54,399 bases of DNA from a virus (Duplodnaviria > Caudoviricetes): IMG/VR virus record IMGVR_UViG_3300043294_000079, positions 1 to 54,399 of that record. One strand, 5' to 3'. The notes beneath the pieces were generated by a model. The model saw only the letters and a program-made list of their open reading frames with translations. It was not told the DNA's origin and searched no databases. The position numbers were made by a program, and so were the translations under genes. Below, in pieces: positions 765 through 34,021 of the stretch (positions within the stretch are counted from its first letter, which is position 1; each line of letters starts with the position of its first letter).

Positions 765-1978
765 GAGGCTGTGTTCCCCGATTGGGTGATGTTGTAGCAA
801 GTGCTGTCGACGTACACAGCACCATCGGGCCAGTCGGCGCCGGAGCCAAACCCGTTGTTGGTAGCGGTACCTTTGACACCGCTGTTGTTCGTGACCGTGA
901 TGTTGCTGTCATAAGCGGCCAGGTTGACGGGGTAGGGCGCTCCTCCCTGGTAGGTGCCGAGGGCCACCGTATTATTGGAGATCGTGCCATTGCTCGCGTT
1001 ATGGACCTCTACACCGTTACCTCCAGTGGTAAGGAGGGTGTTGTTGGTGATCGTGAAACCGGTGGTTACGATGCCGGTGATCGAGTTAAGGGTGATCGCG
1101 GCTTCCGTGGTGTTCGGGTAATAGGTCATGGTGTTTCCGGTGACGGTGACATCTCCACTATTGGCGGGTGCAGCGTTGCCGCCCATCGAGAGTAGGCCAA
1201 AGCTATTCCAGCCAATAGTGTTATTGATGATCGACACGTCCTGACTGTATTCGCCGGACGTATCAGTTTCCATATCCACCACTTCACCGCAGGCGCTGAT
1301 GGTGTTGTTCTCGATCGTGATGTTCCGGCCATCGGTGATCCCGATTGCCATACGTCCGTCGTTTTCAAGGGTCGAGTTCTCGATCACAATGCCGGTTGTC
1401 GGCCCCAAGGCGACATTGTTATCGTTGTCCTGGGTCTCCACCGAGTCACCGAAGGTCTGGTTGATGGTGACGTTGTTGACCATCCCGCCTTGTGTGTCAT
1501 TGAAGGCGATGCCGTACTGCCACTCGTAGTTCCCGTTGATGTTGCAGTAGTCGGTATTGTTGGGTCCAAGAACCGTCATGTTCTCGAAAGTGATATTACT
1601 GCCCCCCTCGGCTTCCCAGATGGTGTTGTTTGTACCGGTGGTCGTCCCGTTCCCGTAGAGGGTGTTCTCAAACGTCGAACCATTCCCGTTGACGATGACG
1701 TTGTTGAGGTAAGGGACGACGAGGGTCTCGTTGGCCTCGTAACACGCACCGCTCGGGAAGTTCACCTGCGCGCCATTGGACAGCGTCGCGAGCCACGCAT
1801 TGAGCGGAGTCGATACATCCGATGAACACGTGGCGTTGATGCTGGAGGGCGGCGAGACGTTCGGGTTGCCGCCGACGTAGACGGCGATCCCACCGCCACA
1901 GATCAGCGCACCGGTCACCCCGAGGGCGATGACCTTGTGGCGTTTCGAGGAGAACCAGGACTTCAGGCGCGCGAGCAT
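761..1978 (-). CDS. Right-handed parallel beta-helix (pectin lyase-like) protein with N-terminal TM/signal segment
   Basis: Repeated NITIENNTI/VSIINNTI/VTVTGNTM beta-helix coils; basic N-terminus followed by hydrophobic VIALGVTGALICGGGIAVYV. Confidence 0.8.
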   Translation of the reverse strand: MLARLKSWFSSKRHKVIALGVTGALICGGGIAVYVGGNPNVSPPSSINATCSSDVSTPLNAWLATLSNGAQVNFPSGACYEANETLVVPYLNNVIVNGNGSTFENTLYGNGTTTGTNNTIWEAEGGSNITFENMTVLGPNNTDYCNINGNYEWQYGIAFNDTQGGMVNNVTINQTFGDSVETQDNDNNVALGPTTGIVIENSTLENDGRMAIGITDGRNITIENNTISACGEVVDMETDTSGEYSQDVSIINNTIGWNSFGLLSMGGNAAPANSGDVTVTGNTMTYYPNTTEAAITLNSITGIVTTGFTITNNTLLTTGGNGVEVHNASNGTISNNTVALGTYQGGAPYPVNLAAYDSNITVTNNSGVKGTATNNGFGSGADWPDGAVYVDSTCYNITQSGNTAS

Positions 1979-21575: not shown

Positions 21576-23357
21576 TCACGAGCGCACCCTCACGCGCCTG
21601 CGCTGCTCGTAGACGGCGCGCCAGTTGGACTTGCGGGCGATGTACTCGGCCAGGTGCTCGCCGGGCAGACGCGCCTCTGGATCGTCCTCTGCTTCGGGCG
21701 GTGGCTCGGGCGGCGGTTGTAGGACTTGGGGCTGGGTCGGCAGTTGCTGCGGTGTCGGGTCGAGCGATGTCCCCTTGCCTTTGGCTGCGACCGAGGCCTT
21801 CGACAGGGCGCTCAGGTCGGCCCACAGCGTGATGTTCTGGCGCTCGATCAGGACCGGGTCATCGCCCCCCTCGATGGGTGGCTCGCTGATGTCGTCGCGG
21901 TAGCGGTTCGCGGTCCAGCTCCCGTTGCGGAGCCGCATGTCGCGGATCTCCTCGATGACCAGGTCGTCGCGCCAGTCCACCTCGCTGAAGCTGATGCGCC
22001 AGTCCTTGACGCCGTAGGCCTGGTAACACAGGGCGAACGTGAACTTCTCCAAGACAAGTTCGCTGGTCGGGCCGCAGGTGGTGACACGAAAAGTCTTGTC
22101 CTGTCCACTCTCGGCCCCTTGCCCGCCCAGGGACCCCGGCTCCATGACGCCGGCCTTGCGGGGCGGCACGCCGTAGGTGGACAGGATGTCGTTGCGGGCA
22201 CCGTCGAGCACGGCCATCCAGTAGTCGAGCTTGTTCTGTGACAGCTCGGTGACGCTGGTCTTGATGCCGCTCGAAGCGCCGCCCTCGGTCGTGAACAGAT
22301 TGCCGATGTTCCTGGTCCCGAGGTTGCGGGCCGCGTACTGGCTGAGCTTCTTCTCGATCTCCGGCGGCGGCGTGGCGAAGGGGAAGTCGACGTGCAGCCG
22401 TGGCGGGTCGCCACGCTTCATGGTCTCTTTGATGAGGCCCGCAGCGAAGAGCCAGGTCTTGATCGGGACGCTGGCCTTCGTCGTGGGCGAGACGCCATAG
22501 AGCGAGGCACCGGGAGAGTCGAGCTTCACGTGGATGACCTCGTGCGGCTCGAAGTTCACCCGCTTGCCGGTGTCGGTCATCTGCACGAAGGCGACGAGCT
22601 TGCCGTCGACTTCCTTGCCGATGTTGCCGTGCTCATCGGCGATGACCGACATGGACTGGCAGTCGAGTGGCCAGAGAGCGACCGGCTCGTTGCCGATCCA
22701 GGTCACCTCCACGAACGCATCGCCGAAGATCAGAGCATCGGTGACCGCCCGGCGCATGAGCTGGCGGATGTCGTCGGTCGGGTTGCAGTAGTCGAGCAGC
22801 TCCTGGATGCGGGCGATCCCCGGCGGGGGGGCGGGCTTGGCCCTGACCTGCTCGGGATCGAGGTTGAGGGGTTCGAGCGTGAGACCCCCGGCGGTGATGG
22901 TGCGGGCGATGCCGTCCACGCACACCGCCACCCATGGGCAGGTGAGGTACGCCTGCAGGAGCTCGGTCATCGCCGTCTGGCGATCAGGTGCACCGGGGGT
23001 GGACGACATGCCGGAGTTGGTCGGCGTCGTGCCACCGATGGGCAGGCCGTTCACGTAGCCGAGACGCGCTACCTGGCGTTTCGGGGGCTGTGGGAGTGCC
23101 GGTGCGGCTTCAAGGGCGTGTGACTGGCCACGGCGCCACGGCAGGACCGAGCGCGACGGGGCTGTGGCTTCGACGAAGGGCGAAGGGGCCGTGCGGCCGC
23201 CGTTGGCTGGCGGCATGAGCGGACCGGCCTCGGAGACCGGCATCTCCATCATGGACAGCTCGCGCTCGATGGTGGCCAGCGCCAGCTCGGCGTGCGCGTG
23301 CTCCAGGCGGCCGAAAATAGGATCAGGCGCACTCTTCTGCCGGTTCCAGAAAGCCAA
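21576..23357 (-). CDS. Portal protein (HK97-like)
   Basis: TTG start with CAGGAGG; VAVCVDGIARTI, DALIFGDAFVE, EVIHVK...YGVSP, ILSTYGVPP. Confidence 0.93.
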   Translation of the reverse strand: MAFWNRQKSAPDPIFGRLEHAHAELALATIERELSMMEMPVSEAGPLMPPANGGRTAPSPFVEATAPSRSVLPWRRGQSHALEAAPALPQPPKRQVARLGYVNGLPIGGTTPTNSGMSSTPGAPDRQTAMTELLQAYLTCPWVAVCVDGIARTITAGGLTLEPLNLDPEQVRAKPAPPPGIARIQELLDYCNPTDDIRQLMRRAVTDALIFGDAFVEVTWIGNEPVALWPLDCQSMSVIADEHGNIGKEVDGKLVAFVQMTDTGKRVNFEPHEVIHVKLDSPGASLYGVSPTTKASVPIKTWLFAAGLIKETMKRGDPPRLHVDFPFATPPPEIEKKLSQYAARNLGTRNIGNLFTTEGGASSGIKTSVTELSQNKLDYWMAVLDGARNDILSTYGVPPRKAGVMEPGSLGGQGAESGQDKTFRVTTCGPTSELVLEKFTFALCYQAYGVKDWRISFSEVDWRDDLVIEEIRDMRLRNGSWTANRYRDDISEPPIEGGDDPVLIERQNITLWADLSALSKASVAAKGKGTSLDPTPQQLPTQPQVLQPPPEPPPEAEDDPEARLPGEHLAEYIARKSNWRAVYEQRRRVRVRS

Positions 23358-23371
23358 TTCAACCTCCTGGG

Positions 23372-23599
23372 TCAGACAAACGGCGAAGGTGCGACCGTCC
23401 CGGCAGGGAAGTCGCGGGCCGGCTCTTTGGAACGGTCGACGTCGGGGGGCATGGCGAAGTCCTTGGAGGCGAACACGCCGCCGAACAGGGGCAGGCGCTC
23501 CTTGCCGTCGAGGTCGAAGCCCGGATAGTGCGCCACGGGCTCCGGCGTTGGCTCGGCGAGCAGGTCGTCGGGGATGAGGTCGGGCTCTTTGTCAGGCAT
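23372..23599 (-). CDS. Hypothetical protein between TerL and portal
   Basis: Fills the gap and overlaps the TerL stop. Confidence 0.5.
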   Translation of the reverse strand: MPDKEPDLIPDDLLAEPTPEPVAHYPGFDLDGKERLPLFGGVFASKDFAMPPDVDRSKEPARDFPAGTVAPSPFV

Positions 23600-25130
23600 G
23601 GCTCCCATTCCCGTTGAAAGGCGACACCGCCGTGCCCTGGCCGGGCGCGAGCACGAGCGGCTTGGTCACGATCTTCGGGCGCTCAGGCTCGCGGGCGTAG
23701 GGCGAACCGACACCGCCCATCGCTTGTATGGCGTAGCGGGCCGCGTCGCAACTGTGATCGGAGACGTGGGTATCGACGTCTTCCACCCTGGTCTTGTCGT
23801 AGGGCAAGTCGGGCAGCTCCCGCACGAAGTTCGGGCACGTATCGGCCAGCACATGCAGCATCGGGCAAGTGTCCTGGTGCCATTTCCCCTGCTCGCGCAG
23901 GTATTCGTGCACCCGGCACAGCGGGCCGTCAGCCAGGGCCTCATGCACCTTCGCCCAGCCGGCAAGCCGGTCGTTGTCGGCCAAGATGCAACCCAGGCCT
24001 TCCTGCGCGTACTCCTCGTAAATGGACAAGCCGTCGGTGGGGTGGTTGCCGGTCGACGGGTCGATGGCATGGCGCACGTAACCGGGCTGCTCGCCAGCCT
24101 CGCGTTCGAGGGCCAGGATGCGTCGCGCCTGGTCACGCACGTCCACACCTGTCTCGTAACACTCGCGGTAGAACCAGAGGCGGCGATCGCTGTCGACGGC
24201 GAACCAAATCACGGCCCATGGGGAGCGCCGGCCGTAGTCGATACCGCACCAGCGCTGCCACTGTGGGGGAAGCGTCGTGCGGGGGACGACGTGGCGGTCG
24301 TGGTCCCATTCCTCGAAGACCTGGCCGATGAAAACGTCCCAGTTACCGTCGCGCATGGCGGCACGACGGGCTGGGTCCCTGATGGCGTTCAACTGGCCGA
24401 GGTAGTCCGCGTCCAGGTAGGCGTTGTCGAGGTACCTCGCCGGGATGAACTCGGTCAGTCGGTGCTGCTCATCCTCGGCCAGGTGCTCGCCGTAGTCGGT
24501 TGGCTCGAGGAAACGCTTCTTCAGGGAGGAGTGACCGAGCCCGCCGGGGTTCGATGCGAGACGCAGCCCGAGAACCGGGATTAGCGGATCCGCTGTGCGT
24601 TGGCGTTCCTCGAGGTACTCGATCACGTCACTGGGCACCAGTCCCGCCTCGTCAAAGAGAACGAGCTGGTATTCCGAACCCTGTTGGCGCGAGACGTCCT
24701 GCACGGTTTCGGCGTACCGGAAGCGAATGAACGAGCGGTTCGGGAAGCGCAGGATGTGCTTGCCCTCGTACCAGGTAGCGCCTAGCGCCTTGGCGAAGTC
24801 GACTTTGAGCAAGGCGTCGAAGAAGGACACTTCCAGCTCGGGGTAGCTACGCCGAAAGGCTCCGATATGGATGCCCGGGTAGCGCACCGCGGCTCGCAAT
24901 CCCTCCATGAGCAGGGCTTTCGTCTTCCCGCCACCCATCGCGCCGCCGTACAGGATCGCGTGCGCGGTGGAGTCGTGAAACTGTCTCTGCTTGGGCGTCG
25001 GGACGTAGCCGAGCGCTTTGAAAACGTCCAGCTTGCGGGCTACTCGCGCCGCCAGCTCATTGCGTTTGCCAAGCAGCTCCTGGTACTGGCGAACTGTCTC
25101 CGGCGTCGCTGTGATCACTGGTGTCGTCAC
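23592..25130 (-). CDS. terL: Terminase large subunit
   Basis: Walker A YGGAMGGGKT, Walker B VLFDEA, ASNPGG, GIDYG nuclease motif, DHSCDAARY. Confidence 0.95.
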   Translation of the reverse strand: MTTPVITATPETVRQYQELLGKRNELAARVARKLDVFKALGYVPTPKQRQFHDSTAHAILYGGAMGGGKTKALLMEGLRAAVRYPGIHIGAFRRSYPELEVSFFDALLKVDFAKALGATWYEGKHILRFPNRSFIRFRYAETVQDVSRQQGSEYQLVLFDEAGLVPSDVIEYLEERQRTADPLIPVLGLRLASNPGGLGHSSLKKRFLEPTDYGEHLAEDEQHRLTEFIPARYLDNAYLDADYLGQLNAIRDPARRAAMRDGNWDVFIGQVFEEWDHDRHVVPRTTLPPQWQRWCGIDYGRRSPWAVIWFAVDSDRRLWFYRECYETGVDVRDQARRILALEREAGEQPGYVRHAIDPSTGNHPTDGLSIYEEYAQEGLGCILADNDRLAGWAKVHEALADGPLCRVHEYLREQGKWHQDTCPMLHVLADTCPNFVRELPDLPYDKTRVEDVDTHVSDHSCDAARYAIQAMGGVGSPYAREPERPKIVTKPLVLAPGQGTAVSPFNGNGSHA

Positions 25131-25593
25131 GGTCTTGGACCTCCAGCGCGGCCATCTCCTGGTTGAGGCTCTTGATCGCCTCGGCGAAGGCGTCCTCGGT
25201 CATGACCTCGATGCGGCTGCGAGTTGGCTCGTCAAGTCCTAGCAGGTCAGCGCGCCTTTTCGCTATGCGGTCAAACGCCGAGTTGAGCGTCGCCATCTGT
25301 TCGGGTGTCAGCTCCTTGCCATACTCCGTCCAGAGACGACGTTCACGCCGATCGAGTTTGAGCAGCTCATTGGCCTTGGCTGCTGCCACGTCCTCGGTGC
25401 CCTGTACCGCCTTGAATCCTCTGTCCGCCGAGCGATGGGCCGTCGATGCCTCGATGCCAAGCACTTCACCGATCTGCGAATAGGTCAGGCTGGCCGACCT
25501 CAGCTCCGCTGCCTTCTGGTCTTGCTCGATCGTTTCGAGGGCACGGATGGCCCTGCCTCTGCCGTCCCTGGCCTTGATCCGTGCGTTGGTCAT
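25057..25593 (-). CDS. terS: Terminase small subunit
   Basis: HTH (LTYSQIGEVLGI) and KRRADLLGLDEP; directly upstream of terL. Confidence 0.8.
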   Translation of the reverse strand: MTNARIKARDGRGRAIRALETIEQDQKAAELRSASLTYSQIGEVLGIEASTAHRSADRGFKAVQGTEDVAAAKANELLKLDRRERRLWTEYGKELTPEQMATLNSAFDRIAKRRADLLGLDEPTRSRIEVMTEDAFAEAIKSLNQEMAALEVQDRDDTSDHSDAGDSSPVPGAAWQTQ

Positions 25594-25719
25594 GGTCTTG
25601 TAATGGCAGCCATGGGTTGCACCGCCTTCCGGACGCTGGCCAGGTCCCGGGGTGTTCTTGCACCGCCGGGACCGCTGCTTGCACGGTCCTCTAGGGACTC
25701 ACGTGGTCAAGCTTACGCG

Positions 25720-25748
25720 TTTATACACTTTCGTGGCGACAAATGCAA
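25720..25748 (-). promoter_or_regulatory. Candidate late promoter upstream of terS
   Basis: TTGCAT-N17-TATAAA on the minus strand in an AT-richer gap. Confidence 0.4.
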
Positions 25749-25771
25749 GTCATCGCAGGTCAGGGGGTGGC

Positions 25772-25823
25772 GACAGACGGGAGCTAGGCAACAGGAGTCC
25801 CTGCCACCCAGCCCCCGCCTGTC
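25772..25823 (-). other. 24-bp RNA hairpin closing the GGC-NN array (processing or terminator structure)
   Basis: GACAGGCGGGGGCTGGGTGGCAGG-GACT-CCTGTTGCCTAGCTCCCGTCTGTC pairs fully only with G.U wobbles, i.e. as minus-strand RNA. Confidence 0.75.
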
Positions 25824-26034
25824 TAACCTCGCCGTGCCTCGCCACGCCAAGCCCCGCCTTGCCACGCCTCGCCGCGCCTTGCCGCGTCACTTCACGTTCA
25901 CCCATGCCTGCCTCGCCAGGCCCGGCCTCGCCATGCCTCGCCGCGCCTTGCCGCGTCACTTCACGTTCACCCATGCCTGCCTCGCCTAGCCCAGCCAGGC
26001 CCGGCCCTGCCCAGCCGCGTCACTTCACATTCAC
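25824..26034 (-). repeat. Non-coding array of three units: 18-nt leader GTGAAYGTGAAGTGACGC + (GGC-NN)7/8/12 (putative guide RNAs)
   Basis: Leaders at 26034, 25970 and 25901; strict 5-nt periodicity with near-invariant GGC (one GGT) and variable NN; units 1 and 2 end GGCAGGCATGG. Confidence 0.9.
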
Positions 26035-26759
26035 GCCGTATCTTCCAGATTCAGCTGCTCCGCCGCGTTGAGCAGGTCCCTCAGCCGACGCAGCGCCGAC
26101 ACCAGCGGGCCGCTCTCCCAGTCGAGCAGATGAAACTCGAGTGCATCGGACAACTGGCGCACGAGCAACCCGTAGTTGGTCCCTGGCGCCGACCTTTGTG
26201 CCCGCGCCTGCTCCATGGTCATCGTGCGACCACGGAAATGGGCGGTGGATGCCTTGAGTGGGATGCTCTCACCCGTCTCGACAGAAACCCCAGTCGTGGA
26301 TCCACGGACCGTGTGCGCTATGAGCACCTCCAGCCTCTGCACGCTGCTCGGGGTCACATACAGCACTTTTGCTATCTGACCTTCGCTCATGCCGCCTTCC
26401 GCCAGCATAAGCACTACGCGTCGCTTGTCGATCTCGTTCAACGGACGCCCGTGTAGCGCGTTGAGGGTAACAGCCTCAGCCAGGGCCGCAGTGTTGGATG
26501 CATATGTTCGCAAGACGGCATCGATCTCGACATCGGGGCCACATGCCTTGAGCCACGCCGGGACGCGATGCCACCCGTCAGTGAGGCGATAGGTACGCTT
26601 CTCTGCAACCACGGGCGGAATCAACATTCCGTAGCCAGCCTTGATCGACTCAACCAAGGATGCGACGTGCTGGCTGTTGACTCCCGTTTCGCGCCTCGGG
26701 TAGATATCCCAGTCCATTACGAACCGAGACGCGGGAACCTTGACAGTTTTAGCGTCCAC
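26031..26759 (-). CDS. ParB/Srx N-terminal domain + HTH protein
   Basis: YPR, PPVV, RLTDGWHRV, NALHGRPL, HTH MSEGQIAKVLYVTPSSVQR. Confidence 0.85.
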   Translation of the reverse strand: MDAKTVKVPASRFVMDWDIYPRRETGVNSQHVASLVESIKAGYGMLIPPVVAEKRTYRLTDGWHRVPAWLKACGPDVEIDAVLRTYASNTAALAEAVTLNALHGRPLNEIDKRRVVLMLAEGGMSEGQIAKVLYVTPSSVQRLEVLIAHTVRGSTTGVSVETGESIPLKASTAHFRGRTMTMEQARAQRSAPGTNYGLLVRQLSDALEFHLLDWESGPLVSALRRLRDLLNAAEQLNLEDTA

Positions 26760-27507
26760 GGCGCTTTATCTCCTCTCCTGCCCACTCCAACAACTCGGCA
26801 GTCTCTGTGTCGTAGGGCTCAGCAACCTCCATCGCCTTCACCTGGGCCTTTCGTGCTCCATCCTTCGTAACCTTGAGAAAGTCCGGATCATCCAGTTCAC
26901 AGAGGCGAAACTGCCCGAACGTCCCACTGCCCTTTTCCGGTCGCCAGTCCCCCACGCCAATCGTGAACCCTGCGGTGGAAAGGAGATTGACGATCGCCTT
27001 CTCCGTGAGATTCGGCATCAGGAACCGAATCGACAGTCGACACCCCCAAGCGGGAAGAAGAGCCCTGGTCCTCACGTCTGGGGCTCCCTGAATGCCGGCT
27101 TGGCGCACAATCGCCATAAACAACTTAGGAATCCCGAACATCGGTAGGCGGTACCCCTGGACCCATACCAGACGACCGATCTGTGCCTTCGATGCATCAG
27201 GGAGATCGACCGCAGCCGACATCATCGCCTTCTTGAACGCTGCCGCCGGGACCGCAAGTCGTGTCGGACCCTCCTCAAGGACATAGGGTGCCGAGTTGAA
27301 CTCAACCAGCGGTTCATGTTTGAGCGTCGCTTTTCTCTCGGCGTTGTTCCTCGGACCACGAGGCACCAACAGCTCGTGCTTCGCTTTCTCGCTAAGACGG
27401 TTGGCAATGTACGGCGTGAGTCCTAGAACGCCGACTTCTACTTCGCCGACCTCGGGTGGTGAGACCTCGATGACGGTAGTTTCCTTGGGTTTGCCAGCTA
27501 TTGCCAT
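26749..27507 (-). CDS. Stand-alone RAMP/Cas7-like RNA-binding protein
   Basis: RAMP-like order of motifs: beta1 VGVLGLTPY, VPAAAFKKAM (cf. iPgsslKGa), thumb-like VRQAG..DVRTR, C-terminal Gly loop GVGDWRPEKGSGTFGQF; RBS AGAAGGAG. Confidence 0.7.
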   Translation of the reverse strand: MAIAGKPKETTVIEVSPPEVGEVEVGVLGLTPYIANRLSEKAKHELLVPRGPRNNAERKATLKHEPLVEFNSAPYVLEEGPTRLAVPAAAFKKAMMSAAVDLPDASKAQIGRLVWVQGYRLPMFGIPKLFMAIVRQAGIQGAPDVRTRALLPAWGCRLSIRFLMPNLTEKAIVNLLSTAGFTIGVGDWRPEKGSGTFGQFRLCELDDPDFLKVTKDGARKAQVKAMEVAEPYDTETAELLEWAGEEIKRRGR

Positions 27508-27543
27508 GAACGGATCTCCTTCTGTTTGATGACTGGCCTTGCC

Positions 27544-28236
27544 TCACTTCGGTCTCGACTTCTCGAACTTCGGTCGGTCAGGTCGACCGGCTCGCAGCCA
27601 CGCGGTGTAGCAAGCGCCGCAGTAGCCCGACCGCATCCGGTCCTTGGGCGTGCCAGCGATGTCCGTGCCACAACGAGCACACACGCCAGCCAGACTCGAC
27701 TGCCTGCCTCGGTAAGCGTCCGCGGCCTTGAGCACGACCGTCGCCTGCTTGTGAGCCAGCTTCGCCAGGCCGTGAATCTCACTCACCATCCCCTGGAACT
27801 CACTCACGAAGTCGCCGAGCGGATCCGGGTACGGCTGCCAGGTGTCAGGCGTCGTCTCCTCGGTCCCGTTGTCACGCTTGATGATGCGACCGCGCGCCTT
27901 GCGCTCGACCTGCTCCTCTGTCGGATCGCTCAGGCGCCCCCCGTGGATGTCGCTCTGTCCCATGCCTGCCGGGTAGCCGTCGACGGCCGCTGTCTCCTCG
28001 GCGCGGGCATACAGGTCTGCCAGCACACCGGCGTCTGCGTACTGGGACAGGATCTCGATGGTGTCGGTCAGTTTCTGGGCGTCGCGCTCGGCTCGCGACA
28101 GCGTCTTGGCCTTCGGTTTACGGCGGTCCACCCAGCACACTCCTCGGTTCGGTAAGATCTGAGCGGATACGGAACCCCTGTTCTGGATGCACGACGGCTG
28201 GGTCACGAGCTCGGCCGCCGTTGTGTGTTCAGTCAA
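27544..28236 (-). CDS. Zinc-finger protein, possible late regulator
   Basis: CARC...CGACY C-terminus; near the end of the early operon; TTGA overlap. Confidence 0.55.
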   Translation of the reverse strand: MTEHTTAAELVTQPSCIQNRGSVSAQILPNRGVCWVDRRKPKAKTLSRAERDAQKLTDTIEILSQYADAGVLADLYARAEETAAVDGYPAGMGQSDIHGGRLSDPTEEQVERKARGRIIKRDNGTEETTPDTWQPYPDPLGDFVSEFQGMVSEIHGLAKLAHKQATVVLKAADAYRGRQSSLAGVCARCGTDIAGTPKDRMRSGYCGACYTAWLRAGRPDRPKFEKSRPK

Positions 28237-28526
28237 GGTCGCCTCTTTCGGGGCACGACCTTCGACGCGTCCACGAACCACTGAAGCTCAGCAATGATCT
28301 TGCGTGCTTGCGGAACAGTCAGCAGGACCGTCGCAAACTTGTCGGCGTCAAGACTCAGCCGCAGGTAGGGAAGGATCCTCCCGTCAAGCACGCTGTCTCG
28401 GTAGACGTAGCCAGGGATCACGGCGAAATCGACGTGCGCTAGCCCAGCAGACCAGTCCCACGGTCGGATGTGGGAACCGTCGTAGGCGAGAACCTTGATT
28501 ACGTCGGTTGACGCGTAGATGCTCAC
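28233..28526 (-). CDS. Hypothetical protein
   Basis: GTGA-coupled ORF MSIYASTDV... Confidence 0.5.
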   Translation of the reverse strand: MSIYASTDVIKVLAYDGSHIRPWDWSAGLAHVDFAVIPGYVYRDSVLDGRILPYLRLSLDADKFATVLLTVPQARKIIAELQWFVDASKVVPRKRRP

Positions 28527-29016: not shown

Positions 29017-29774
29017 GACGCACCTCTCAGTAGTTCCAGCAACCGATCTGACTGCCACTCGCGTTCCTTCTTATGCGCGGCGGCAGAGGCGGCGGAGGCG
29101 GCGTTGGCGTCGGCGCAGCCGGCGGCGTAGTAGGCGGCGGCGTAGTAGGCGGCGGCGGCGTCGGCGGCGCAGCCGGCGGCGTCGGCGGCGTAGTAGGCGG
29201 CGGCGGCGTCGGCGGCGTAGTAGGCGGCGGAGGCGGCGTAGTAGGCGGCGGAGGCGGCGTAGTAGGCGGCGTTGGCGTCGGCGCAGCCGGCGGCGAAGGC
29301 GGCGGCGTAGGCGGCGGCGGCGTCGTAGGCGGCGGAGGCGGCGTAGTAGGCGGCGTAGCGATTTGCCTCAGTCGGGTTCTTCGCCCATCTCAACGCTGCA
29401 TCAATCGCCTCGCGCGGCCGCTTGTCACCGGGGTAGCGATCCTCGTAGTGTCTGAGCACTCGTTTGGCACACTCCGCTGCCCACTGGACGGCGATGATCT
29501 GTGTCAACGTCCCGACCTGGCTCACGAGCCGCGCAGAACTGAACGCCACCTTGTCATCGGCAGCGACGGACGCGCCGCGACCCTCGGCGATCCACAGCAC
29601 GGCACCGTTGCGAGCGTGCTCTGCGATGCCCTGGTGTGTGGCAAGGTGCCAGCCGGATACACACATCACTGGTCTCGTGTCAGCAGTCCACGCGCCCACC
29701 CTGACAGGCCATTTCACCCTCTGGTAGGTGGTAGTGCGATCCGGGTTGAGCCATTTGTAACAGGTCTCTCTCAT
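29013..29774 (-). CDS. Imm5-like domain protein with Ala/Tyr low-complexity repeats
   Basis: WAAECAKRVL..YE..YPGDKRPREAIDAA motif followed by AAYYAASA repeats and EREWQ. Confidence 0.7.
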   Translation of the reverse strand: MRETCYKWLNPDRTTTYQRVKWPVRVGAWTADTRPVMCVSGWHLATHQGIAEHARNGAVLWIAEGRGASVAADDKVAFSSARLVSQVGTLTQIIAVQWAAECAKRVLRHYEDRYPGDKRPREAIDAALRWAKNPTEANRYAAYYAASAAYDAAAAYAAAFAAGCADANAAYYAASAAYYAASAAYYAADAAAAYYAADAAGCAADAAAAYYAAAYYAAGCADANAASAASAAAHKKEREWQSDRLLELLRGAS

Positions 29775-32855: not shown

Positions 32856-34021
32856 GACGCCTCGTCAAATAGCGACGCCTGCGTGACCAGGCAATGCGGC
32901 GAGCACCACAACACCTCGCAGTGGCGGTTGTCCTTGTTGCCGCCCGTGCTCGTGCTCGTCTGATAGGCGGCCGATGCCGACCAGCGGATGCGGCGCCAAG
33001 ACTTCGGGATCGCATCGTCGTGCTCGGTGGAGTAGCCAGCCAGCACGATCCGATAGCGCGGGTTGTCGCCATTAGCTACCGCCCAGTCCCGGCAAGCGAT
33101 AGCGACGTCGACCGTCTCGCTCGCGTACAGACCCGCGGTTCGCACGTCCTCCGCATAGGGTGGATCGAGGAACACACCGACCGACGCTCCGAAGCTCAGC
33201 GCGCCCTTCGTGACAACCCGTGACCAGTCGCCCGTGCAGACCCTGACATCGCGCAGCCGTTCGGCAAGCTCGCGCATATAGGCCGCGATGCCTTCGGTGC
33301 GGTAGCTCAGGTTGTTATAACCAGCCCGGCCCGCGTCGCCGAGGTGAGGGAGCTGGCGGTTGACGCCCTGGCCCGCGTCGCCGAGGTGAGGGAGCTGGCG
33401 GTTGACGCCCTGGCCCGCGTCGCCGAGGTGAGGGAGCTTGCGGTTGACGCCCTGGCCCGCGTCGCCGAGGTGAGGGCGCTTGCGGTTGACGCCCTGGCCC
33501 GCGTCGCCGAGGTGAGGGAGCTGGCTCTCATCATCCGTCGCCGAGGTGAGGGAGCTTGCGGTTGACGCCCTGGCCCGCGTCGCTTCGTAGTCCCACGGGC
33601 CGGTTCCTGAGCACCAGCCGCCACCGATCCAGGCATTGACGCCCCAGACCCACCAGCCCGCGATCTTGGCGTCGTAGAACATCGGGTCACACTCAAGTCC
33701 CGCCGCCAAAGTCTCGCGGCCCTCATTCACGAGCCATAAGTGACGGGCGAACAAGTCGTCCTCGTTCACCGGCCAGTCTGCGAACGCCGCCACAGTCTCA
33801 GGATCGGAGGCTAGTGCTCGCCAGAAGTTCGCCAAGTAGTGATCCGCGTCATTTACCGTCTCGGCGCGTCGCGTGCCATCTGCGAGGTTGTGAGGCCGTT
33901 CTAGAAGAACAGCGAGAGAGCCAGCGAACGGTTCAACGTAGTTGTCCACGTCACCGAGCGCCGCCCATACGTTGGGAGCAACCCTGCGCTTGCCACCGAA
34001 CCAGACGAAGGGGGCCTTCAT
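32852..34021 (-). CDS. DNA adenine methyltransferase (Dam/D12-like) with internal repeats
   Basis: PFVWFGGK, YVEPFAGS, FLDPPY. Confidence 0.88.
   Translation of the reverse strand: MKAPFVWFGGKRRVAPNVWAALGDVDNYVEPFAGSLAVLLERPHNLADGTRRAETVNDADHYLANFWRALASDPETVAAFADWPVNEDDLFARHLWLVNEGRETLAAGLECDPMFYDAKIAGWWVWGVNAWIGGGWCSGTGPWDYEATRARASTASSLTSATDDESQLPHLGDAGQGVNRKRPHLGDAGQGVNRKLPHLGDAGQGVNRQLPHLGDAGQGVNRQLPHLGDAGRAGYNNLSYRTEGIAAYMRELAERLRDVRVCTGDWSRVVTKGALSFGASVGVFLDPPYAEDVRTAGLYASETVDVAIACRDWAVANGDNPRYRIVLAGYSTEHDDAIPKSWRRIRWSASAAYQTSTSTGGNKDNRHCEVLWCSPHCLVTQASLFDEAS
33329..33583 (-). repeat. 42-bp coding tandem repeat (QLPHLGDAGQGVNR), about 5.5 copies
   Basis: Directly visible; the first copy is read in a different frame. 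Confidence 0.9.

Follow-up and report, generated by a model that had tools for sequence, protein, structure and literature searches.

What is encoded by a short array of pentanucleotides, three bases fixed and two variable, that lies next to the packaging genes of a phage? The window, i.e., the whole stretch of DNA that was analyzed, is an entire record of 54,399 bases and corresponds to a tailed-phage genome; the publicly deposited runs with this sequence are labelled peat metagenomes, and the closest isolated phages showed at most 35% identity in the large terminase (TerL). On the minus strand, positions 26034-25824 were composed of three head-to-tail units. Each opens with a constant head of 18 nt and continues with 8, 9, or 12 GGY-NN pentamers, and a hairpin was found next to the last unit:

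25977..26034, minus strand: putative vrRNA unit 1; head at 26034-26017, overlapping the stop codon of the candidate vap gene, then seven GGC-NN and a terminal GGC-AG
25908..25976, minus strand: putative vrRNA unit 2; GCATGG plus the head (25970-25953), then eight GGC-NN and a terminal GGC-AG
25824..25907, minus strand: putative vrRNA unit 3; GCATGG plus the head (25901-25884), then 11 GGC-NN and GGT-TA
25772..25823, minus strand: hairpin of 24 bp, starting at the third G[GA]CAGGC junction and present after tract 3 only

The constant head read GTGAA[CT]GTGAAGTGACGC in the three units, and the in-phase GGY-NN runs spanned 26016-25977 (8 units), 25952-25908 (9 units), and 25883-25824 (12 units, the final one being GGT-TA). 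The GGY was intact in 29 of the 29 units, and the NN pairs were non-repetitive. A preliminary description of this DNA had listed the NN strings, and parsing of the minus strand bore them out: TG AG CG CT TG TA GA for unit 1, AA GC GA AT GA CG CT GA for unit 2, and AA GC GA GT AA GG TT GT GA AC GA TA for unit 3. These lists stood as written, with the final GGC-AG of tracts 1 and 2 omitted from them, and the first three NN were indeed common to units 2 and 3. Elsewhere in the 54.4-kb genome, neither strand had a run of at least four GGCNN. By a hand estimate, with P(GGC) of about 0.033, eight in-phase copies are expected about 1e-7 times in the genome, and the pentamer pattern is far beyond chance. 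Tandem Repeats Finder reported periods of 5, 10, and 69 nt for the array, the 69-nt period at 90% identity, and an origin of units 2 and 3 by duplication is plausible. Near the array, the same program detected this 5-nt periodicity alone and no array of 25-40-nt repeats and spacers.

The sequence G[GA]CAGGC ended all three tracts and represented a one-base register slip. When counted from the GGCA-GGC junction, the 25-nt constant spacer shared the 5-nt register of the tract that followed it, as read directly from the sequence. The 18-nt constant element was located 5' of all three tracts and 3' of only two, and it folded no better than its shuffles (z 0.57); this element may serve as a 5' handle, as a processing site, or as the tail of the guide before it. 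The region 25740-25830 had a minimum free energy of -53.5 kcal/mol (z -5.07), and none of 200 shuffles was equally stable. The hairpin at 25772-25823 contained G-U pairs, and its 5' arm was pentamer-like (GACAG GCGGG GGCTG GGTGG CAGG). For the array transcript, this hairpin may act as a 3' cap, serve as a processing site, or form a terminator that has no U-tract; neither a canonical terminator nor a strong promoter was flagged within the module formed by the array and its neighboring genes. A match of the terminal hairpin to an Rfam miRNA family was sub-threshold, at 26.4 bits against a gathering score of 95.5, and was taken as chance.

Two genes on the same strand precede the array:

26749..27507, minus strand: vipr, two genes upstream of the array, predicted to encode a 252-aa Vipr protein, a Cas7-like RAMP; phrog_4652 at E 2.4e-12
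26031..26717, minus strand: candidate vap, 228 aa, between vipr and the array; predicted ParB/Spo0J/KorB/Noc-like N-terminal domain plus a helix-turn-helix (HTH)

The ORF at 26749-27507 had no Pfam match, and PHROG 4652 is labelled 'unknown function'. A phmmer comparison of the 252-aa product with the PDB sequences gave one meaningful match, chain 36pp_D, 'SUSP1 Vipr protein', at E 0.011. When a profile of 45 family sequences (profile A1) was used, the same chain was matched at E 2.1e-17, the alignment running from position 20 to 196 of the 202-position profile and from residue 4 to 188 of the 202-residue chain; the other clades in this profile showed about 20-30% identity to the 252-aa protein. 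The AlphaFold2 model had a mean pLDDT of 91.5 and a pTM of 0.85. In a Foldseek comparison of this model with the PDB, 68 chains passed E <= 0.001; Csm3/Cas7 subunits from type III and type VII CRISPR complexes ranked highest (E about 2e-5, probability 1.00). The RAMP architecture comprises an RRM core, a glycine-rich loop, and a thumb, and a G-loop, GVGDWRPEK, was observed at residues 184-192. In the SUSP1 protein, the GGY (G1/G2/Y3) is described as held by H17, R138, D177, W178, and R179 (10.64898/2026.04.26.720927). In our alignment, SUSP1 R138, D177, W178, and R179 corresponded to R148, D187, W188, and R189 of the window protein, R148 and R189 being invariant across profile A1; H17 aligned with N36, which is a difference. 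Collectively, the alignments and the predicted structure indicate that this ORF is a Vipr protein with a RAMP fold and conserved residues that would grip GGY.

VIPR was first described in 2026 preprints as a CRISPR-like gene silencer (10.64898/2026.04.26.720920; 10.64898/2026.04.26.720927). Its parts, as reported there, are a small ancestral RAMP (Vipr), usually one accessory gene (vap), and vrRNAs of 9-16 YNNGG repeats, and the published vrRNA caller accepts at least four units (10.64898/2026.04.26.720920). According to the same preprint, one Vipr protomer is bound per repeat with the GGY sequestered, and the NN pairs with DNA, where one target base in three, mostly at the wobble position, is skipped; this '1-nt skip rule' was shown experimentally for type II VIPR, to which the window Vipr is only distantly related (10.64898/2026.04.26.720920). 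The outcome is given as transcriptional silencing of rival phages, prophages, and satellites, and the authors argue that wobble skipping defeats escape by synonymous mutation (10.64898/2026.04.26.720920).

The Vipr homology, the RAMP fold, the GGY/NN array downstream on the same strand, and the lack of a self-target, together with this literature, identify the array, with high probability, as three vrRNA guide genes of a phage-borne VIPR system. The preliminary description had proposed, from the letters alone, a gapped guide whose NN pairs would read coding targets, skip the wobble base, and tolerate synonymous escape. This proposal is now supported by homology and by the literature, since it matches the published 1-nt skip rule. 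By homology and the published mechanism, transcription of the array would proceed from the minus strand, either together with vipr and the ParB-like gene or immediately after them. Vipr protomers would then bind along the GGY-NN, one per pentamer, sequestering GGY and presenting NN. The resulting filament would pair NN with double-stranded DNA, skipping every third target base, so that n units would read 3n-1 bp. Targets would usually be coding, with the skipped base at the wobble position, and transcriptional silencing would likely strike a gene of some rival, be it a phage, a prophage, or a satellite.

The GG runs of the sense strand, 3 nt apart, could also form two-tetrad quadruplexes, and a purely structural element with no guide function might thus be considered, either a G-rich non-template strand prone to G-quadruplex or R-loop formation or a slippage-prone microsatellite. 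Such an element explains neither why GGY is fixed while NN is free nor why the arrays are strictly associated with a RAMP homologous to a solved RNA-guided effector, and the non-repetitive NN are unlike slippage products. We find this explanation hardly credible.

The putative guide genes were then compared with the systems they resemble. With type II VIPR, as known from SUSP1 and a Pseudomonas fulva prophage, the window locus shares a small Vipr RAMP, one accessory DNA-binding gene, the phage-borne setting, and the lack of a self-target. The layout of SUSP1, with three vrRNAs downstream on the vipr strand, is the same, and the GG-binding residues are conserved, although the sequence similarity is distant (E 0.011 in the single-sequence comparison). 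There are differences as well. The accessory gene of the window is ParB/KorB-like, and the type II systems belong to elements of Escherichia and Pseudomonas, whereas the host of the window phage is a peat bacterium. The SUSP1 clade has a structured 3' pseudoknot tail, whereas the window has an unstructured constant stretch of 18-25 nt located 5' of each tract, in the repeat register. At the GGCA-GGC junctions between the window units, the frame shifts by one base; the same is seen in Cluster F mycobacteriophages and in one further locus (L064), and these junctions may correspond to the 'staggered arrays' mentioned in the legend of fig. S18 of the preprint (10.64898/2026.04.26.720920).

The backbone of class 1 CRISPR-Cas complexes (Cas7/Csm3) belongs to the same fold family and likewise places one protomer per fixed RNA step. 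In both class 1 CRISPR-Cas and VIPR, thumb-driven base flipping is reported to interrupt guide-target pairing periodically (10.64898/2026.04.26.720920; 10.64898/2026.04.26.720927). The VIPR step is 5 nt, with three guide bases withheld and one target base skipped, whereas that of class 1 CRISPR is 6 nt, with one base flipped per strand. Moreover, the guide information of VIPR is spread through the repeats, in contrast to the contiguous spacers of a CRISPR repeat-spacer array. TRAP on the Bacillus trp leader RNA is an oligomer that reads a fixed triplet approximately every 5 nt, the spacer bases being free and uninformative. The fixed triplet at a period of about 5 nt is its likeness to VIPR; TRAP guides nothing and is not a RAMP. 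A TRAP-like protein-binding RNA, or a pac/parS site, was an early idea for the window array and was dropped on finding the Vipr homology.

Regarding the distribution of these arrays, BLASTN of the array region against isolated phages retrieved only Cluster F-type mycobacteriophages, in 19 records. Mattes and Quico have intergenic GGC-NN arrays of 220-230 nt with GGCAGGC junctions, and a phrog_4652 gene (E about e-58) lies directly downstream of each:

2400-2628 of Mattes (L001), sense strand: array just upstream of the phrog_4652 (Vipr) gene
2481-2698 of Quico (L002), sense strand: array just upstream of the phrog_4652 (Vipr) gene

In the Mattes/Quico-type records examined, the array and the protein were annotated as nothing or as 'hypothetical protein', and the 'hypothetical protein' calls that cover arrays (DRBy19 gene 51, Florinda, and others) may be spurious. 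Vipr-like genes were also found by tblastn in 5 Gordonia phage records. A pattern scan of IMG/VR detected at least 136 stretches of at least nine consecutive GGCNN; among the arrays listed, the phages ranged from AT-rich to GC-rich, and the arrays were intergenic, often lying on both sides of a gene coding for some 200 aa. Homologues of the window ORF were used to build an HMM, which in a first pass detected a Vipr-like relative in 57 of the 138 array loci examined. After iteration, a Vipr-like ORF was found in 63 of 80 loci with full 1.5-kb flanks and in 17 of 56 loci with short flanks, counts in which some loci overlap on one contig and to which drift of the iterated profile can contribute. 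The array and the Vipr-family protein clearly travel together across distant phages.

In four peat-metagenome runs, many unrelated contigs aligned with the window only over the pentamer array and then continued into unlike, often AT-rich sequence; GGCNN arrays thus seem common in those samples. At two further loci (L020 and L043, about 1500-1790), a conserved hairpin tail, about 40 nt long, closed each tract (GGCAAACACAC..., next a stem-loop, then ...GTTTGC), a layout nearer than the window array to the published tract with a structured 3' tail. At another (L019, about 1465-1702, minus strand), the stretches separating the tracts contained the tRNA T-arm-like GGTTCGACTCC, and ARAGORN called no tRNA there.

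The genes downstream of the array belong to the packaging region, and the array with its two genes forms a compact module beside them:

21576-23357, minus strand: portal gene, downstream of the array; Pfam Phage_portal at E 8.8e-18
23592-25130, minus strand: large terminase gene (TerL), downstream of the array
25057-25593, minus strand: small-terminase-like gene (terS), downstream of the array; PHROG 645, labelled 'Rnase E', at E 1e-15
25594..27543, minus strand: insertion of about 1.95 kb, the VIPR module, with vipr, candidate vap, the array, the hairpin, and a leader of about 180 nt before terS

The 'Rnase E' label of PHROG 645 looks like an inherited misnomer, since related Arthrobacter phage records have an HTH DNA-binding protein at the same position. 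Three relatives were found via TerL, namely L139 (74% identical), L140 (71%), and L141 (62%). In L139 and L140, the portal was 89-92% identical, and a homologue of the ORF at 27544-28281 was followed by terS, with a gap of 146-155 nt in L139. Neither a Vipr ORF nor an array was found in the fetched DNA of these two relatives; the segments compared with 25594-27543 of the window were 8747-10074 of L139 and 2711-4007 of L140. Because the flanking genes are adjacent in both, the behavior of the module is that of a mobile insertion ('moron') located immediately upstream of terS. The third relative, L141, had an uninterrupted run of 26 GGC-NN units at 354-483, about 900 nt upstream of TerL, on a contig that ends before vipr could appear. 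The window module carries two genes along with the array; the remaining genes of a CRISPR locus are missing from it. Elsewhere in the window, tandem repeats were observed at 29077-29355 (GCG-rich, periods 3, 42, and 48) and at 33324-33583 (42 nt, 6.4 copies), both probably coding.

The second gene of the module, the candidate vap, has an alternative GTG start at 26759, with which the product would be 242 aa long and the gene would overlap vipr by 11 nt. Its product matched phrog_1033, 'ParB-like partition protein', at E 1.9e-14, with weak Pfam HTH matches. Eight homologues were detectable, one of them (P0122) with PF02195, and the motif DGWHR was invariant. The AlphaFold2 model had a pLDDT of 74, with values under 50 at residues 135-166 and a poor C-terminal half. 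The Foldseek search with this model returned Spo0J (1vz0) at 2e-5, followed by KorB, Noc, and CTP-bound ParB, the similarity covering the N-terminal domain and the HTH. The accessory protein is thus predicted, from fold and sequence, to resemble the ParB/Spo0J, KorB, and Noc clamps in having a ParB/Srx-like N-terminal domain followed by an HTH, with DGWHR in place of the canonical GERRxRA of ParB clamps. One further locus (L055) showed the identical order of vipr, ParB-like gene, and array, and in another (L044) the homologue lay beside its vipr; their ParB-like proteins matched that of the window at E 2e-40 and 1e-34, respectively. The words 'ParB', 'Mycobacter', and 'Actino' were absent from the main text of one VIPR preprint (10.64898/2026.04.26.720920).

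The array sits between this ParB-like gene and terS, a position compatible with repeats that act as double-stranded DNA sites, either a parS-like centromere for the ParB-like protein or a pac/cos site for the small terminase. Short direct-repeat arrays are, in addition, typical of plasmid and phage centromeres and of terminase sites. Against this, L139 and L140, with TerL 71-74% and TerS 66-74% identical, lack the array; as they keep both terS and TerL, packaging does not need it. The Cluster F arrays lie far from the terminase genes, and arrays travel with Vipr, while a ParB-like ORF was detected in just 4 of the array loci examined. Moreover, a 5-bp period with three fixed bases would place successive sites on opposite faces of B-DNA. 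We therefore regard a DNA-site function as highly improbable and keep to the interpretation of the units as guide genes.

If the units are guides, their targets could be sought directly. The preliminary description had noticed no self-target by eye, and the searches agreed with it: at skips of 0-2, the best scores in the phage's own genome were 10-17 matches, inside the spread obtained with 200 shuffled guides each. The observed self-score was reached least often for unit 1 plus AG with skip 0, namely by a fraction of 0.035 of the shuffles, and the perfect matches at skip 3 in this genome were the array itself. Published VIPR systems are likewise described as having no self-targets (10.64898/2026.04.26.720920). 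In 354 kb of fetched loci, including those of relatives, no target scored above shuffles, and the records of five relatives showed no match within three mismatches.

In the large collections, exact patterns with a 1-nt skip were used. For unit 3, no exact match was found to 12 NN in viral_contigs, nor to 11 NN in viral_contigs, metagenome_contigs, and genome_contigs. The central 9 NN of this unit gave 1 viral and 23 genome matches, none exceeding 21 of 24 bases, as expected from chance extension. Unit 2 plus AG (18 specified bases) matched 13 viral loci, compared with 1 for a control in reversed order and 0 for a control with a 2-nt skip. Ten of these loci belonged to one family, from phages of 42-43% GC, and all 13 read KAEI[ED]RL[ED][RS] in an open frame. 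There were also 106 metagenome matches (79 translations after merging identical ones, with some families recurring), in many unrelated coiled-coil proteins. All exact matches to unit 2 in the databases had KAEI[ED]RL[ED] in an open frame, and for this reason the excess and the codon phase were attributed to a common peptide and its codons, and not to a target. The support for the guide interpretation does not come from the gapped-match comparison with controls suggested in the preliminary description: unit 3 had no exact match, and the excess for unit 2 was that of a common coiled-coil peptide. The NNx-triplet translations given in that description (KAEIERLE-like for unit 2) were arithmetically correct, and its warning that a protein-like translation is weak evidence was justified, as the unit 2 matches reflect the commonness of the peptide.

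A further comparison used 253 guides from the IMG/VR arrays and 411 kb of DNA, far too small a sample for this purpose, and skip 1 showed no excess over skips 0 or 2 or over shuffled NN order. No natural target of the three window guides was found in the large collections by exact patterns. The target scan of a VIPR preprint accepts at least 80% NN identity, allows no gaps, and uses shuffled-guide and Markov nulls (methods section 17 of 10.64898/2026.10.15.759431). The missing target is thus weak evidence, since the large collections were scanned by exact pattern only.

We also applied an assay that requires no target. In 339 guides drawn from 119 loci, codon-position-1-2 dinucleotides were contrasted with their reverse complements in a score, and this score varied between guides beyond a within-locus permutation, with z 2.96 (5 of 2000 permutations), and a reversed-dinucleotide control gave z 0.9. 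When the permutation was pooled, the true score was significant at z 6.6, but so was the reversed control at z 4.9; differences in composition between genomes contribute to the pooled result, and only the within-locus contrast is therefore informative. The NN composition of individual guides is coherently 'sense-like' or 'antisense-like', which gives modest support to coding targets.

The lack of a target in the exact-pattern scans is also compatible with a decayed or orphaned VIPR remnant, whose tracts would be no working guides or would be decoys for the Vipr of another phage. The constant spacer is atypical, and tracts 1 and 2, with 8-9 units, are short, lying at or just under the published range of 9-16, with tract 1 one unit below it. 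Moreover, 'solo' decoy vrRNAs have been reported (10.64898/2026.10.15.759431). The state of the module argues otherwise: vipr is intact, with conserved RNA-binding residues and a confident model, the GGY is preserved in every unit, and the whole is compact and on one strand. Such a remnant or decoy array is thus very unlikely, and a VIPR system with intact guide genes remains the preferred interpretation.

A more specific arrangement can be proposed for this clade, on which three observations bear: the fold of the accessory protein, the homologues next to vipr in L055 and L044, and where the constant element lies. The VIPR filament would be paired with a ParB/KorB-like clamp, so that the guide marks a site in the rival genome and the clamp loads there and spreads or bridges, converting a 35-bp footprint into long-range silencing; at the same time, instead of a 3' pseudoknot tail, the vrRNAs would carry on the 5' side a constant segment that is unstructured and in register with the repeats. 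This proposal is speculative, and we consider it unlikely. If true, the 5' constant segment would represent a distinct vrRNA architecture and an assembly start point.

The mechanism is already in print, in three 2026 preprints, and the window locus is a further member of the VIPR family that opens no new question of its own. Its particulars, i.e., the ParB/KorB-like accessory gene, the in-register constant spacer, the terminal hairpin, and the insertion beside packaging genes, are minor additions. A literature search on pentanucleotide repeats in mycobacteriophages returned one unrelated microsatellite survey. The wobble-skipping code could be read from the raw sequence alone, and the VIPR family gains a phage of high GC content from peat, in which the module behaves as a mobile insertion just upstream of the packaging genes. 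Cluster F mycobacteriophages such as Mattes and Quico, which are well studied, have these arrays and this protein too, and since they infect M. smegmatis mc2 155, a host in common laboratory use, they would be practical phages in which to study this clade.
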